Assembly: GCA_029068165.1 (NCBI GenBank) | Contig: JAIEDA010000018.1 | Coordinates: forward strand, 74,065 to 138,064 | Source of the DNA: Clostridia bacterium | GTDB lineage: Bacteria; Bacillota; Clostridia; Christensenellales; UBA3700 | Length of the DNA: 64,000 nt | Direction: 5' to 3' | Shown: piece by piece, positions 2,175 through 11,302 of the stretch | Layout of the letters: every line of letters begins with the position of its first letter | Numbering within the stretch: position 1 is the first letter of the stretch | Translations under genes and position numbers: made by a program | Notes under the pieces: model-generated | What the model saw: the letters and a program-made list of their open reading frames with translations, nothing else | Databases searched by the model: none | What the model was told of the DNA's origin: nothing

Positions 2175-4259
2175 ATGGACAAGAAGATTCCAGTTTATTT
2201 ATTCCACGAGGGAACAAATTACGAGGCGTATAAATTTATGTCGCCGCAAGAATGCGTTAAGGACGGCAAAGCAGGATGGCTTTTTAGAGTATGGGCGCCC
2301 AACGCAAAGTCGGTCAGCATAGTCGGCGATTTCAACGATTGGGATAGAGATTGCCATAAAATGAACAAAATAAGCGACGGCATTTGGGAAGGGTTCGTCG
2401 AGGGGTTAAAGACCTACGATATTTACAAATTCAGCGTAGAAACTCCGCAGGGCAAGTTGAGGCTCAAAGCCGACCCGTACGCTAGACATAGCGAAACTTC
2501 GCCCGCCAACGCTTCAAAGTTATATAAATCGCAATTCAAATGGAGCGATAAGAGTTGGCTAAACGAGAGAGAAAAGTTTGACGCGTTCCATTCTCCTATG
2601 AATATATACGAGCTTCACTTAGGCAGTTGGAAGAGATACGCCGACGGCAATATTCTCAACTATAGAGATTTGGCGGACGAACTCGTCGCGTACGTAAAGC
2701 AAATGGGCTATACGCATATCGAGATACTTCCCATCAGCGAATATCCGTACGAAGGCAGTTGGGGATATCAGGTCAGCGGAATGTTTGCGCCTACGTCTAG
2801 GTACGGAACGCCCGACGATTTCAAGTATCTCGTCAACAAGTGTCACAGGAACAAGATAGGCGTAATACTCGACTGGGTATGCGCGCATTTCCCCAAAGAC
2901 GCGTTTGGACTCTACGAGTTTGACGGAGCGGCGTGTTACGAATATTCCGACCCGCTCAAGCAAGAGCACAAGGAATGGGGTACGAGAGTGTTCGACTACG
3001 GCAGGAACGAGGTCCAGTCTTTCCTTATCTCCTCGGCTGATTTTTGGGTAAGCGAATACCACGTCGACGGACTGCGAGTGGACGCGGTCGCTTCGATGCT
3101 GTATCTCGACTACAACCGCCGCGGCGGAGAATGGCGTCCCAACGTTTTTGGCGGCAACTACAATTTGGAAGCAATAGATTTCCTCAAAAAGCTCAACTCG
3201 CATATGCTTGGCAAGTATAAGGGCTTGCTTATGATTGCCGAAGAATCTACGGCTTTCCCCAACGTGACTAAACCCGCTTACGACAACGGTTTGGGTTTCA
3301 ATTTCAAATGGAATATGGGTTGGATGAACGATATGCTCAGCTACGTGTCGTTAGACCCGTTTTTTAGAAAGGACAACCATAACAAAATCACTTTTTCGAT
3401 AACTTACGCTTACAGCGAAAACTATATACTTCCGCTCTCGCACGACGAAGTAGTGCACGGCAAGCGTTCGCTTTTGGATAGAATGCCGGGGGCGTATTTG
3501 GATAAGTTCAACGCGCTGAAAGCTTTCTTCGGCTTCACTATGGCGCATCCTGGCAAGAAATTGCTGTTTATGGGAGGAGAGTTTGGACAGTTTATAGAGT
3601 GGGATTACAAAAAGCAGTTGGATTGGTTTTTGCTCGACTACGAAACTCACAACAGTTTGCATAAATTCGTAAAAGACCTCAACGCTTATTATCTCGCCAA
3701 CAAAGAGATGTACTATCTAGACACGACTTACGACGGCTTTAAATGGATATGCGTGGACGATAATACTCAAAATATCGTATCGTTTATGAGAAGCGACGGC
3801 GAGGGCAACTATACTATCGCAGTCGTAAACTTCTCGCCGGTAAAACGCGAGGGTTACTGTATGGGCGTGCCTGAAAAGAGGTCGTATAGAGTCGCGCTCA
3901 ATAGCGACGACAAAAAATACGGCGGAGAGAGCGGCAAGATGAGCTTTTCGGCGAAAAAAGGCGAAATGCACGGCTATCCCTACCATATCGAAATGGTCAT
4001 TCCGCCAAACAGCGTGATGTATATCGCTCCCGCTAGAAAAGTCAAGAAAGAAGCGACGGAAACGGCAAAGGAAAATGCAGATAAAGAAGTTAAGCTGCAA
4101 GACGCTTCAAAAAGCGTAAGCAAAGCTGAGAAGGGAAAGGCAAGGGCAAGTAAGTCGGATAAGACGGTTAAAGACGGCAAGCCGAGTAAGGAAAGCAAGG
4201 CAAGTAAGACCGAAAAGACTGCAAAGCCTAGCAAGAAGCCGGCAAGCGAGGGGAAATAG
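2175..4259 (+). CDS. glgB: 1,4-alpha-glucan branching enzyme with a Lys-rich C-terminal tail
   Basis: 694 aa. GH13 branching-enzyme blocks are present (GYTHIEILPISEYP, DWVCAHFPKD, GLRVDAVASMLY, IAEESTAFP, LPLSHDEVVHGK). RBS AAGGAGAG. Confidence 0.95.
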   Translation: MDKKIPVYLFHEGTNYEAYKFMSPQECVKDGKAGWLFRVWAPNAKSVSIVGDFNDWDRDCHKMNKISDGIWEGFVEGLKTYDIYKFSVETPQGKLRLKADPYARHSETSPANASKLYKSQFKWSDKSWLNEREKFDAFHSPMNIYELHLGSWKRYADGNILNYRDLADELVAYVKQMGYTHIEILPISEYPYEGSWGYQVSGMFAPTSRYGTPDDFKYLVNKCHRNKIGVILDWVCAHFPKDAFGLYEFDGAACYEYSDPLKQEHKEWGTRVFDYGRNEVQSFLISSADFWVSEYHVDGLRVDAVASMLYLDYNRRGGEWRPNVFGGNYNLEAIDFLKKLNSHMLGKYKGLLMIAEESTAFPNVTKPAYDNGLGFNFKWNMGWMNDMLSYVSLDPFFRKDNHNKITFSITYAYSENYILPLSHDEVVHGKRSLLDRMPGAYLDKFNALKAFFGFTMAHPGKKLLFMGGEFGQFIEWDYKKQLDWFLLDYETHNSLHKFVKDLNAYYLANKEMYYLDTTYDGFKWICVDDNTQNIVSFMRSDGEGNYTIAVVNFSPVKREGYCMGVPEKRSYRVALNSDDKKYGGESGKMSFSAKKGEMHGYPYHIEMVIPPNSVMYIAPARKVKKEATETAKENADKEVKLQDASKSVSKAEKGKARASKSDKTVKDGKPSKESKASKTEKTAKPSKKPASEGK

Positions 4260-4359
4260 CTCGTTCGACTACAAACATAAAAATGCAATAGATTTAATAT
4301 AAATATGATAAGAAAGACGATTTTATCCGAGAGATAAAAAGGAAGTTTTAGGAGGGAAA

Positions 4360-5553
4360 ATGTACACAAACAAAAAAGAATGCGTAGCAATGTTGCTCGC
4401 AGGCGGACAGGGAACGAGGCTGTATTCGCTGACGAGAGATTTGGCGAAGCCGGCGGTTTCGTTTGGCGGGAAATACAGGATTATAGACTTTCCGCTATCC
4501 AACTGTATCAATTCCAATATTGATACGATAGGCGTACTCACGCAGTATAAGCCTTTCGACCTCAACCAGTATATAGGAAACGGACAACCTTGGGATCTAG
4601 ATAGATTGAACGGCGGAGTATTCGTATTGCCGCCGTATATGAAAGGCGAAACGTCCGATTGGTACAAAGGCACCGCGAACGCTATCTATCAAAACATAGA
4701 ATTTGTGGACAAGTTTTCGCCTGAATACGTATTGGTGCTCTCGGGCGACCACATTTACAAGATGGACTATTCGCAAATGCTTGCTTACCACAAGGAAAAG
4801 AAAGCCGACTGCACTATAGCCGTCATAAACGTATCTATCGAAGAGGCGTCGAGGTTTGGAATTATGAACACGAACGACGACAACTCGGTTTACGAATTTG
4901 AAGAGAAGCCGAAGAAGCCTAAGAGTACCAACGCTTCGATGGGAATATACATATTCAACTGGTCGAAGCTGAGAAAGTATCTCATTGACGACGAGAACGA
5001 CAAAAATTCTTCCAACGATTTCGGAAAGAACATAATTCCCAATATGCTAAAGGACGGGCAAAAGCTCTTCGCGTACAATTTTTCAGGGTACTGGAAAGAC
5101 GTGGGCACGATTTCCTCGCTTTGGGAGGCTAATATGGACGTGCTCAGCGAGGACAGCGGCATCAACTTGGACGACAGCGCTTGGAAGATATACGCTAGAA
5201 ACACCGCCGAGCCGCCGCACTGCGCAGGCAAGGACGCGGTCATAAAAAATTCGCTTATTACCGAGGGCTGCGTAATCAAAGGAAAAGTCATCAACAGCGT
5301 GATTTCCACGGGCGTTGAGATTTGCGAAGGCGCGGTAGTCGAGGATTGCAATATTATGCCGGGCGCGAAGATATGCAAAGGCGCGTCGGTCAAGTACGCT
5401 ATAGTGGGCAACGAAGCCGTCGTCGGCGAGAACGCTAAAGTCGGCGATACGCAGGAAGGTATGGTCGACGGACAGTGGCAAATCACCGTCGTAGGTCCGC
5501 GCGCAAAAGTCGCGGCAGGCGCCGTAGTGCCGGTAAAGGCAATGGTAGATTAA
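4360..5553 (+). CDS. glgC: glucose-1-phosphate adenylyltransferase, catalytic subunit
   Basis: 397 aa. N-terminal [37 protein letters not shown] and a C-terminal left-handed beta-helix region. Confidence 0.95.
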
Positions 5554-5568
5554 GGAGGGGGAAGAGAA

Positions 5569-6681
5569 ATGAACAACGCTATGAGTATAATTTTCGCAAG
5601 CGACAACGAGTCCAAGCTCAACGAGCTTACTTTGCACCGTACCACGGCTTCGCTTCCGTTCGGCGGCAGGTATAGATGTATAGACTTTGCGCTCTCCAAC
5701 CTCGTCAATTCCTCCGTTACTACGATAGGCATAATCACGAGAAACAACTACTCTTCGCTTATGGACCATATCCGAATGGGTAGAGATTGGGACCTCAATA
5801 GAAAAAACAGCGGTATAGCCGTTTTCCCGCCTTACGCGTCGAATACGTCGACCAACGTATTTAAGGGTAAGATAGAGGCGCTCTACGGAATACTCGACTA
5901 TATCGAAAATTCCGACGACGAGTACGTAATAATCACCAACAGCAATATAATCGCAAGCATAGACTTTGACGACGTATACGAAGCTCACGTAGCAAGCGGC
6001 GCGGACGTTACGATGCTCACTTACACCGCTAAGCCGACTACAAGCAAAAGAGTGCTTGTCGAAAAGACCGCTTCGGGAAGAATAAACGGTATGAAGATCA
6101 CTCAAACCGCCGACGACAACGCCGTGGAGATAGGCTTGTTTTGTTATCTCTTCAAGAGGACGCAGCTCATCAAGCTCATATCCGATTCTTACGAGAGAGG
6201 CAAGATAGATTTGGAGAAAGATATACTTCAAGCCAATTTGGACAAACTCAAGATATACGCTTATAAGGTAAAGGGACACGCCGCGCTTGTCGACGATATC
6301 AAGTCGTACTATAGAGAGAGTATGGCGATACTCGATACGGACATTAGAAACAGCTTGTTCTACAGCGCGGGCAAAGTGTTCACCAAAGTAAAAGACAGCG
6401 TACCGACTAGGTACTGCGAGGGCGCGAGCGTAGTCAATTCTCTCATCGCCGACGGCTGTAAAATAAACGGCAAAGTCGAAAATTCCATACTTTTCCGTGG
6501 AGTAATAGTCGAAGAGGGAGCGGTCATTCGCAACAGTATCGTTATGGAAGGCGGAAGGATTATGCAAGGCTCCAAACTCAATTACGCGATTACCGACAAG
6601 GACGTCAGAGTAACTCAAGACAAGTCGTTGAGCGGCTCGGATAACTATCCCGTGGTCGTAGTAAAGAACAAAATCGTTTGA
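5569..6681 (+). CDS. glgD: glucose-1-phosphate adenylyltransferase, GlgD subunit (regulatory, Firmicutes type)
   Basis: 370 aa paralog of GlgC (LHRTTASLPFGGRYRCIDFALSNL) lacking the GGxGxRL motif. Positioned directly after glgC, as in Bacillus and Clostridium glg operons. Confidence 0.9.
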   Translation: MNNAMSIIFASDNESKLNELTLHRTTASLPFGGRYRCIDFALSNLVNSSVTTIGIITRNNYSSLMDHIRMGRDWDLNRKNSGIAVFPPYASNTSTNVFKGKIEALYGILDYIENSDDEYVIITNSNIIASIDFDDVYEAHVASGADVTMLTYTAKPTTSKRVLVEKTASGRINGMKITQTADDNAVEIGLFCYLFKRTQLIKLISDSYERGKIDLEKDILQANLDKLKIYAYKVKGHAALVDDIKSYYRESMAILDTDIRNSLFYSAGKVFTKVKDSVPTRYCEGASVVNSLIADGCKINGKVENSILFRGVIVEEGAVIRNSIVMEGGRIMQGSKLNYAITDKDVRVTQDKSLSGSDNYPVVVVKNKIV

Positions 6682-6873
6682 TAAGTAAAGTATATAGAAT
6701 CAAAAATATAAAGGTTAGGAACAAGAAGAAACAACCTAGACAACTAAAAGCAAGTCCGATTGTAGGCTTAAGCGTAAAAGCGGAGCGATAGATATCGGAC
6801 GGGAAATCAAATCAAGTCGCTTGCAGTATATATGACGACGAGCGAACGAGTAAAATTTAGGAGGTAGCGAACG

Positions 6874-8514
6874 ATGCCGACGCAAAACAAACCAAAGAAA
6901 ACCGCCGAAACTAATGAAAAGGCGGTAAATAAGCAGGAAAAACCTACCCAAGCAACTGAAGAGAAAAAGACCGCTAAGACTGCGGTCAAAGCTGCGGCAA
7001 AGCCTAAGACTGCAACCGTCAAAGCTGCAAAACCCGCGGCTAAGGCAAGCGGCGAGAATAAAAAGCAAAATCTCAAGGTAGACTTTGATAAAAAGATACT
7101 TTTCGTATCGTCGGAAGCGGTGCCTTTTATCAAGACGGGCGGACTTGCCGACGTAGCGGGCGCGCTGCCCAAAGCGTTGGTAGAACGCGGCGTAGATTGC
7201 AGGGTAATACTTCCGCTCTATATGGATATTAAACCCGAACTTCGCGAGAGTATGCAATACGTAGGCAACCTATACGTTCATCTTTCTTGGAGAAGCCAAT
7301 ATTGCGGACTTTTCAAGAGCGTATACGAGGGAGTGACGTATTACTTTATCGACAACGAGTACTACTTCAGGAGAAGCGGACTGTACGGATATTACGACGA
7401 CGGCGAGAGATTTGCGTTCTTCTCCAAAGCGGTATTAGAGTGTATCCGTCTTATGGACGGCTTCGTTCCCGATATAATCCAATCAAACGACTGGCAAAGC
7501 GCGTTGATACCGGTATTTTTGGACGTATTCTTCAGGGACGACGAATTGTATAAGAATATAAAGACGGTTTATACCATTCACAATATAGAGTTCCAAGGCA
7601 GGTACAGCGGCTTTATGTCGGGCGACGTACTGGGACTTCCCGATTGGGCGAGGGAAATCGTCGACTACTCGGGCGACGTCAACTATATGAAAGGCGGTAT
7701 TGAGAGGGCGAACAAGGTCACGACTGTTTCGCAAACCTACGCAAAGGAGATTCTCAACCCCTATTTCGGTTACGGAATGAACGATATTCTCGTCAATAGG
7801 CAATTTAAGCTGTCGGGCATTATCAATGGCATAGACGTAAAAGCCAACGACCCCAAGACTGATAAATACGCGTACGTCAACTACGACTTGTCGACTTTTT
7901 CCAATAAAGTTAAGAACAAACTCAAATTCCAAGAGGCTCTCGGCTTGCCCGAAGACCCCAATATACCTATGATAGGTATGGTCGGAAGACTTACTCATCA
8001 AAAAGGTCTTGACTTGATTGCGCCTATCATCACGAAGATTTTGGATATGGGCGTACAGCTCGTAATTTTGGGCACGGGCGATTATAAGTACGAGGAAATG
8101 CTCAGGAACGTTCAAAGCAGGTATCCCAACAACTTGCGTTCACTGATAACGTTCTCGTCGGAACTTGCGAGCAAAATTTACTGCGCGAGCGATTTGTTCT
8201 TAATGCCGTCCAAGTTTGAGCCGTGCGGTCTTAGCCAAATGATAGCTATGAGATACGGCAGCTTGCCTATCGTAAGAGAAACGGGCGGACTGAAAGATAC
8301 GGTTATACCTTACGACTATACGACCGGCGAGGGCACGGGCTTTACTTTCTATTCCTACAACGCTTACGATTTGCTCTACGCTATCGAGAGAGCGGTGGGA
8401 CTGTATCGCGACTTCAAGACCGACTTCGCTAAAGTCGTCAAAAACGCTATGACGCAAGACTTCAGTTGGGAAAATATATCTTTGAGATATATCGATTTGT
8501 ATAAAGAGTTGTAA
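6874..8514 (+). CDS. glgA: glycogen synthase (GT5) with a 72-aa Lys/Ala-rich N-terminal extension
   Basis: 546 aa. The canonical start motif KILFVSSEAVPFIKTGGLADV begins only at residue 73. Strong AGGAGG RBS in front of ATG 6874, and no alternative start codon lies near the conserved core. Confidence 0.93.
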   Translation: MPTQNKPKKTAETNEKAVNKQEKPTQATEEKKTAKTAVKAAAKPKTATVKAAKPAAKASGENKKQNLKVDFDKKILFVSSEAVPFIKTGGLADVAGALPKALVERGVDCRVILPLYMDIKPELRESMQYVGNLYVHLSWRSQYCGLFKSVYEGVTYYFIDNEYYFRRSGLYGYYDDGERFAFFSKAVLECIRLMDGFVPDIIQSNDWQSALIPVFLDVFFRDDELYKNIKTVYTIHNIEFQGRYSGFMSGDVLGLPDWAREIVDYSGDVNYMKGGIERANKVTTVSQTYAKEILNPYFGYGMNDILVNRQFKLSGIINGIDVKANDPKTDKYAYVNYDLSTFSNKVKNKLKFQEALGLPEDPNIPMIGMVGRLTHQKGLDLIAPIITKILDMGVQLVILGTGDYKYEEMLRNVQSRYPNNLRSLITFSSELASKIYCASDLFLMPSKFEPCGLSQMIAMRYGSLPIVRETGGLKDTVIPYDYTTGEGTGFTFYSYNAYDLLYAIERAVGLYRDFKTDFAKVVKNAMTQDFSWENISLRYIDLYKEL

Positions 8515-8632
8515 ATGTTATACAAAAAGGCTTGAAAATTTATAAAATATTACTTTATTATAAAAAAACGGCGATTAAGCGTGTAATTTGTAGCAAAAAA
8601 TAAATGTTTATGCTATAATTTCAATGTGAAGA

Positions 8633-8665
8633 TTTTCCCTTTCCGAGTATTTCGGAGAGGGAAAA
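8633..8665 (+). repeat. short hairpin related to the arms of the 33107-33269 palindromic element, in the glgA-glgP spacer
   Basis: TTTTCCCTTTCCGA, loop GTAT, TTCGGAGAGGGAAAA. The arm TTCGGAGAGGGAAA resembles TTCGGCGGAGAGGGAAA at 33109-33125. It lies about 15 nt downstream of a TGC-TATAAT extended -10 (8611-8619). Confidence 0.5.
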
Positions 8666-8719
8666 ATAGCGTAAGTTTATAAATAGGCATATTATTTTGG
8701 AGATTAATATAGATAAATT

Positions 8720-11302: not shown

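Follow-up and report, generated by a model that had tools for sequence, protein, structure and literature searches.

In the small genome of a gut Clostridia bacterium of the order Christensenellales (GenBank assembly GCA_029068165.1), three enzymes encoded by one glycogen operon, the branching enzyme GlgB, the glycogen synthase GlgA and the alpha-glucan phosphorylase GlgP, each carry a lysine-rich basic tail at one free terminus. The operon lies in a stretch of 64,000 nucleotides (nt) of contig JAIEDA010000018.1, below called the window, in which position 1 is the first letter. The tails are specific to these enzymes and to these termini. What is new here is that the degradative enzyme GlgP is tailed too, throughout the genus, and that in one operon the three polymer-active enzymes are tailed whereas the nucleotide-sugar enzymes are not. 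Relatives keep the tails and their composition, whereas duplications, insertions and deletions rapidly change sequence and length. The tails are probably functional. By analogy with PhaM, PhaF, AlgP and Ppk1, they may anchor the enzymes electrostatically to a polyanion of the cell, the nucleoid being the likeliest partner; this reading we favour tentatively, as a serious possibility.

Basic tails on three enzymes of the glycogen operon

The tails, with a repeat and a translation signal that bear on them, are located as follows.

4035..4259, + strand: C-terminal tail of GlgB, 74 amino acids (aa 621-694); domain models end at aa 617-623; 30% Lys, net charge +12.
6874..7089, + strand: N-terminal extension of GlgA, 72 aa (aa 1-72); models start at aa 74; 26% Lys, 19% Ala, net charge +11.
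11120..11302, + strand: C-terminal tail of GlgP, about 60 aa (aa 801-860); models end at aa 796-801; 28% Ala, 25% Lys, net charge +10.
4123..4235, + strand: tandem duplication inside the GlgB tail, 54 nt (18 aa), 2.1 copies (Tandem Repeats Finder, 76% matches, score 126).
6859..6864, + strand: AGGAGG ribosome-binding site, 9 nt upstream of the glgA ATG.

All three tails lie outside every catalytic-domain model of Pfam and NCBIfam, and their coordinates and lengths match the open reading frames and the domain limits. This bears out a preliminary description of the same DNA, which had reported Lys/Ala/Thr/Pro-rich tails on these three enzymes. Overall the tails contain 25-30% Lys (K) and 14-28% Ala (A), together with Thr (T), Ser, Glu and Pro. 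AlphaFold2 models of GlgA and GlgP were built with family alignments. The cores of both proteins fold confidently, that of GlgA with a predicted local distance difference test score (pLDDT) above 85, and the tails show no secondary structure, pLDDT being 29-35 over GlgA aa 1-65 and 27-32 over GlgP aa 804-860. Neither tail was confidently docked onto its own core in these models. As modelled, the GlgA and GlgP tails are intrinsically disordered polycations, and the disorder that the preliminary description had supposed is supported for both.

Although similar in composition and net basic (+10 to +12), the tails are not DNA repeats of each other, as had also been stated. The tail-coding stretches share only low-complexity matches of 7-16 nt, and the idea that they are DNA copies of one another was rejected. 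Apart from the 54-nt duplication in glgB, Tandem Repeats Finder detected within the tails only a weak repeat of 11 nt, in the glgA extension. The tandem duplication in glgB shows how its tail has grown.

The GlgA extension is not a start-codon artefact, because ATG 6874 is the only in-frame start (ATG, GTG or TTG) ahead of the GlgA core. The 18 nt upstream of this ATG, which include the AGGAGG site, read TTTAGGAGGTAGCGAACG, and the congeners share the N-terminal sequence MPTxSKTKK. The preliminary description had excluded such an artefact on the strength of the AGGAGG site and the lack of another start near the core, and it is upheld in this.

The source genome comprises 1.67 Mb in 32 contigs and is 96% complete. 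The operon has the order glgB-glgC-glgD-glgA-glgP, with a GH13 gene behind it; all six genes lie on the + strand.

2175..4259, + strand: glgB, 1,4-alpha-glucan branching enzyme, 694 aa; CBM48, GH13 catalytic and C-terminal beta domains.
4360..5553, + strand: glgC, ADP-glucose pyrophosphorylase, without tail (internal control); NCBIfam NF003670, 606 bits.
5569..6681, + strand: glgD, regulatory subunit of ADP-glucose pyrophosphorylase, without tail (internal control); NCBIfam TIGR02092, 355.7 bits.
6874..8514, + strand: glgA, glycogen synthase, 546 aa, GT5 core from aa 74; Pfam Glyco_transf_5 at aa 74-306, E = 4e-81.
8720..11302, + strand: glgP, alpha-glucan phosphorylase (GT35), 860 aa; Pfam Phosphorylase at aa 94-797, 1054.7 bits.
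11399..13219, + strand: GH13 alpha-amylase-family enzyme, 606 aa, without tail; Pfam Alpha-amylase.

Family models support the identities of the tailed enzymes. GlgB matches CBM_48, Alpha-amylase and Alpha-amylase_C in Pfam, the last ending at aa 619, and is a full-length equivalog of NCBIfam NF003811 (880.7 bits against a cut-off of 741, aa 7-617). GlgA is assigned to the ADP-glucose-type synthases by NF001898 (649.8 bits, cut-off 603, aa 74-546). GlgP belongs to the phosphorylase family TIGR02093 (1106 bits, cut-off 553, aa 6-796); the glycogen-specific model NF011562 and the maltodextrin-specific model NF011561 give 859 bits each, under their cut-offs of 1546 and 1273. For the GH13 enzyme every NCBIfam match is under its cut-off, the nearest being GlgX-like and cyclomaltodextrinase models.

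Conservation and turnover among relatives

The comparison covered the operon from 20 species of the genus (this one and 19 others), 15 loci from other genera of the same family, 7 other families of the order and 75 further Clostridia. Extension lengths in relatives were measured against the protein cores. The GlgA N-terminal extension is present at all 20 genus loci (24-90 aa) and all 15 family loci (28-168 aa). Several further families of the order have it too; an example is the cultured Pumilibacter muris CLA-AA-M08 (locus L086), whose GlgA extension measures 84 aa and whose GlgB ends in a tail of 41 aa. The GlgA extension is absent from the CAG-917-like Christensenellales, Ruminococcus and other Oscillospirales loci compared. 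At least 15 aa of extension (median 97 aa) are seen in 111 of 115 sequences among the 120 best database homologues, and in 110 of these 111 the extension is net positive.

Some GlgA N-termini among the relatives are unusual. Two loci from other families of the order have giant N-terminal open frames, one of 456 aa that is acidic and Asn/Glu/Asp-rich (L142, genome G047) and one of 286 aa that is Asn/Gly/Ala-rich (L143, genome G057). Protein P0019 carries a net acidic extension of 254 aa resembling repeated helical units. At locus L132 (genome G023, protein P0093) the NCBI gene call of 472 aa begins at the GlgA core, and the open frame runs 145 aa further upstream and is K-rich.

All 20 genus loci encode a GlgP C-terminal tail of at least 20 aa (60 aa here, 20-45 aa in the others), as do 5 of the 15 family loci; the 34 loci outside the family lack it. 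A K/A/T-rich GlgP tail is also missing from all of the best 150 representatives (50% identity) in a database of 1.84 billion proteins, and the possibility that such tails are widespread was rejected. For GlgB, the 19 congeners have only a basic stub of 8-16 aa (RKxKKQ...), and the 74-aa form is species-specific. Long GlgB tails are present in other genera of the family (17-78 aa). Basic GlgB tails of 28-133 aa, often opening with a PVKKR(T/E)PK patch, occur in Ruminococcus (loci L079, L087-L091, L095, L096, L099, L101, L102 and L106) and in other Oscillospirales (L061, L071 and L094), with no GlgA extension there. Conservation among orthologues, which the preliminary description had pointed to as informative, thus holds across the genus for the GlgA and GlgP tails and fails for the long GlgB tail. 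Its observation that GlgC, GlgD and the GH13 enzyme lack tails extends to the relatives: none of them has a real extension in 35 genus and family loci (for glgC, 20 genus and 14 family loci), and what looks like an extension there is of random composition and results from a start placed too far upstream.

On a tree of GlgA cores, the minimum number of changes is 12 for the GlgA extension, 15 for the GlgB tail and 3 for the GlgP tail. Judging from these sequence comparisons, basic GlgB tails have arisen repeatedly in other Clostridia. Independent pairs on this tree, over 117 loci, revealed no coupling between gains and losses of the three tails, but they offer too few contrasts for certainty.

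Even inside the genus the tails are barely alignable, and their lengths vary 3- to 9-fold. In composition the orthologue tails contain 26-37% K against 8% in the proteome, and only 2-9% of the residues LIFMYWC against 30%. No orthologue tail is net negative, and all those of GlgA and GlgP are net positive (medians +5 to +10.5). Over ten within-genus pairs, the GlgP tail has a ratio of non-synonymous to synonymous substitution rates (dN/dS) of 0.32, the GlgA extension one of 0.33 and the GlgB stub one of 0.17, compared with 0.04-0.06 for the cores; these values come from aligned columns only, with dS of 0.7-0.9, near saturation. They suggest that the tails are under relaxed yet real purifying selection, acting on composition and charge and not on sequence. 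Since GlgA and GlgP tails are present across the genus and much of the family with constrained composition, pure strain-specific drift is argued against.

A rival explanation is that the tails represent tolerated low-complexity growth: A-rich, slippage-prone DNA at structurally free termini would expand and contract nearly neutrally, and selection would only remove hydrophobic or aggregation-prone variants, the tails having no specific function. Poor alignability, variable length, the 54-nt duplication, the species-specific long GlgB tail, a tail dN/dS 6-8 times the core value and the lack of detected coupling between gains and losses of the three tails are all consistent with it. However, such growth has to be reconciled with a GlgA extension kept at the same terminus in 20/20 genus and 15/15 family loci, and a GlgP tail kept in 20/20, despite near-saturated synonymous divergence, and also with a charge that is never negative (positive in every GlgA and GlgP tail), a dN/dS of about 0.3, which is under 1, and the recurrence of GlgB tails in unrelated Clostridia. 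The rest of the proteome bears on the same question.

Lysine-rich segments elsewhere in the proteome

Genes of the source genome were predicted with a simple codon-usage open reading frame caller (1337 genes, 88% coding), so that base rates are approximate. Low-complexity segments of at least 35 aa that are K-rich (at least 20% Lys) are found in 15 proteins. A basic, hydrophobe-poor terminal segment of at least 20 aa is found in 19 of the approximately 1337 proteins, most of them membrane or ribosomal, and acidic terminal segments in 14. The 12 non-Glg proteins with a K-rich segment are 10 membrane proteins, ribosomal protein L24 and an IspH-S1 fusion. Only five soluble proteins have a basic tail of at least 40 aa, namely GlgB, GlgA, GlgP, L24 and a YgiQ-like radical SAM protein. 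Three of the six operon genes fall among the 19 tailed proteins of 1337 (hypergeometric P = 4.7e-5, a post hoc value on an approximate gene set). The K/A/T low-complexity idiom is therefore lineage-wide, but on soluble metabolic enzymes it is almost confined to the glg operon.

The preliminary description had cautioned that the lineage may be generally prone to such extensions, and that K/A-rich tails at similar frequency on unrelated proteins would count against a special role. The caution is justified for the ten membrane proteins, L24, the IspH-S1 fusion and the 14 proteins with acidic tails; it does not extend to soluble metabolic enzymes, among which the glg operon stands nearly alone. 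Likewise, the idiom is common on membrane proteins, while Glg enzymes make up three of the five soluble proteins with long tails.

The K/A/T-rich segments of the ten membrane proteins are up to 243 aa long and lie beside transmembrane helices (for example, contigs C5:153666-158051, C32:18754-22293, C3:215586-218792, C6:27262-28632, C24:132270-133940 and C25:3493-4767). Some have near-perfect peptide repeats, such as KTTAA/KKPAA arrays or KSTATxASKTAPT units. Together these segments look like a lineage-wide cationic 'brush' on the cytoplasmic side. L24 (contig C10:142144-142632) has a K/A/T-rich C-terminal extension of about 59 aa, and all 22 congeners have one (loci L148-L170, open frames of 142-196 aa). 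The YgiQ-like protein (contig C32:52730-54727) ends in a K/R/G-rich tail of 61 aa, and the ATPase of an energy-coupling factor transporter (contig C27:67969-69036) has a basic terminal tail of 36 aa.

This distribution raises the possibility that the Glg tails are membrane tethers, whose polybasic residues would bind anionic phospholipids and place glycogen metabolism at the cytoplasmic membrane face. Ten of the 12 other K-rich segments are on membrane proteins beside a transmembrane helix, meaning that the idiom resides mostly at the inner membrane surface, but the Glg tails have no amphipathic helix or hydrophobic anchor (LIFMYWC 2-9%, and no helix predicted by AlphaFold2). Purely electrostatic polybasic membrane binding is usually weak without a hydrophobic anchor. 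Such a tether seems improbable to us.

Tail length also varies with the species. Inside the genus, this genome has the longest GlgP, GlgB and antiporter tails, the third-longest GlgA extension and the fourth-longest L24 frame; the tail of a GtrA-like membrane protein is not the longest. GlgA extension length correlates with that of the L24 tail (rho 0.89), an effect of about two independent lineages, and the tail lengths of GlgA, GlgB and GlgP are uncorrelated with each other. Because the L24 and antiporter tails are longer here too, part of the tail length reflects a species-level tendency to K-rich expansion. For the same reason a Glg-specific co-expansion is weakened as an explanation, though the GtrA-like tail is not longer.

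Returning to tolerated growth, its case gains from the 19 basic and 14 acidic terminal tails in the genome, from the L24 and antiporter tails that are longer here than in most congeners, and from the GlgA length that tracks L24; it loses from the absence of tails on GlgC, GlgD, the GH13 enzyme and almost all other soluble enzymes. Taking the evidence from relatives and proteome together, we consider this explanation rather unlikely.

A candidate tether for glycogen metabolism

If the tails have a binding partner, several candidates can be set aside. Glycogen is uncharged and the tails have nearly no aromatic residues, which makes direct glycogen binding unlikely. Mutual binding is disfavoured because the tails are like-charged. 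Polyphosphate, which the preliminary description had listed among the candidates, is disfavoured because the genome has no match to PPK1 (PF02503) or PPK2 (PF03976), neither being found in this 96%-complete assembly, while 7 and 8 of 14 control genomes, respectively, scored. With glycogen, polyphosphate and self-binding disfavoured, abundant polyanions remain: nucleoid DNA, RNA or ribosomes, and the anionic membrane face.

The same observations bear on the possibility that the tails co-assemble directly, or gather on a polyphosphate scaffold, forming one glycogen-metabolising body. The similar tail composition on three enzymes of one operon, and the AlgP and Ppk1 precedents for basic tails on polyphosphate granules, would fit this picture, but like-charged tails repel, they share no conserved recognition motif, no coupling of their gains and losses was detected, and no PPK1 or PPK2 is present whereas the control genomes scored. 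We regard this as highly improbable. The preliminary description had proposed a shared targeting or co-assembly signal. The restriction of the tails within the operon to synthase, brancher and phosphorylase is confirmed; a single shared co-assembly signal is not supported, as no coupling of gains and losses was detected and GlgB tails occur alone in Oscillospirales.

In the tether that we favour, each disordered polycation, attached to the free terminus of one of the three enzymes acting on the glycogen particle, would draw its enzyme, without specificity, to some abundant polyanion of the cell. The partner would most likely be nucleoid DNA, with RNA, ribosomes or an anionic membrane surface as alternatives. 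Glycogen particles with their bound enzymes would thereby be held and dispersed on this scaffold, and would not coalesce or be unequally inherited. Polyanion binding, the identity of the polyanion and the localisation of enzymes and glycogen by such binding are what we infer. When glycogen is left untethered, as in E. coli, it undergoes phase separation at the old cell pole, and division becomes asymmetric as a result (PMC11042326). Such skewing of division by old-pole glycogen provides a plausible selective reason for tethering the particle via its enzymes.

There are close parallels in other storage systems. PhaM, PhaF and AlgP have histone-H1-like tails that bind DNA non-specifically and distribute polyhydroxybutyrate (PHB) or polyphosphate granules on the nucleoid (PMC13052382). 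In PhaM of Cupriavidus necator and PhaF of Pseudomonas putida, as in the Glg enzymes, a basic disordered Lys/Ala/Pro-rich tail is joined to a storage-particle module. However, theirs is on a dedicated phasin or activator and not on the polymerising and degrading enzymes, and their polymer is a polyester (PHB or other polyhydroxyalkanoate) instead of glycogen. PhaF, moreover, has regular AAKP-type repeats, which the Glg tails, with their putative DNA binding, lack. AlgP of Pseudomonas aeruginosa resembles them in its K/P/A-rich tail, the loss of which leads to fewer, larger polyphosphate granules (PMC13052382), but its granule is itself a polyanion and its tail consists of long regular KPAA arrays, whereas the present genome lacks PPK1 and PPK2. 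Finally, Ppk1 of Caulobacter crescentus needs its positively charged C-terminal tail of 22 residues for localisation and for normal granule production (PMC3806658). Here a short basic tail is built into the storage-polymer-synthesising enzyme itself, as in the Glg enzymes; the differences are that only one enzyme is involved, that the tail is much shorter and that its product, polyphosphate, can bind the tail, while glycogen is uncharged. Measured against the histone-H1-like tethers, the Glg tails share the Lys/Ala/Pro-rich basic composition and (for GlgA and GlgP) the predicted disorder, and do not share the regular short repeats.

A different set of roles would involve no targeting at all: the tails could be entropic bristles for solubility, spacers against crowding or entrapment on the particle, or regulatory elements, with lysine acetylation or autoinhibition as possible mechanisms. 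The long N-terminal extensions of the plant starch synthases SS3 and SS4 may be counted in favour of such roles, as may the fact that the Glg tails are hydrophilic, predicted to be disordered and located at free termini, with composition conserved and sequence not. The nearest precedent is the plastidial phosphorylase Pho1 of plants, also a GT35 enzyme, in which L80, a disordered stretch of some 80 aa that contains lysine-rich repeats, is a negative regulator (bioRxiv 10.64898/2026.09.19.751552). L80 and the GlgP tail are alike in being disordered lysine-rich regions on a GT35 phosphorylase; however, L80 is eukaryotic and an internal insertion, with an acidic PEST-like part and phosphorylation sites, whereas the GlgP tail is basic and C-terminal. 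Furthermore, solubility leaves the always-positive charge unexplained, as well as the need for tails in only these three enzymes, and the AlphaFold2 models show no confident docking of tails on cores. A non-targeting role appears quite unlikely.

Several observations weigh against the tether as well. First, the isolated tails matched no known domain in Pfam, giving only noise at E <= 10, and Tandem Repeats Finder found in them no regular KPAA/AAKP/PAKKA arrays as in AlgP and PhaF. Second, many congener tails have a net charge of only +4 to +6, which may be too weak for stable DNA binding, and tail lengths differ widely between species. Third, the ten K-rich segments that adjoin a transmembrane helix are not on known DNA-binding proteins. 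Fourth, the GlgB tail is a mere stub in the congeners, joint gain and loss of the three tails was not detected, and both the correlation of GlgA with L24 and the high rank of several tails of this genome within its genus show tail length to be partly a species-wide trend.

Bacterial glycogen-metabolism enzymes are very well studied. Nevertheless, searches of 8.4 million papers and preprints brought up no lysine-rich or disordered tail on any of the three enzymes in bacteria, in keeping with the remark in the preliminary description that such tails were not known on bacterial Glg enzymes. The accessible portion of a 2024 Chem Rev review of prokaryotic alpha-glucan enzymes makes no mention of disordered or lysine-rich extensions, and glycogen is absent altogether from a 2025 review on how bacteria position their organelles (PMC13052382). 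Automatic gene calls can hide such tails, as in the NCBI GlgA record that lacks its 145-aa K-rich extension.

If the tails do localise glycogen metabolism, they would constitute the first positioning device for glycogen, and the tether would be part of the enzymes and not a separate adaptor. A broader proposition, which at present must be called rather doubtful, is that glycogen is positioned by polycationic tethers built into synthase, brancher and phosphorylase, both in this family of Christensenellales and, by convergence, in other anaerobes of the gut. Glycogen, the one major bacterial storage inclusion without a known positioning system, would then be built up and mobilised on the nucleoid or another polyanionic scaffold and shared evenly at division.

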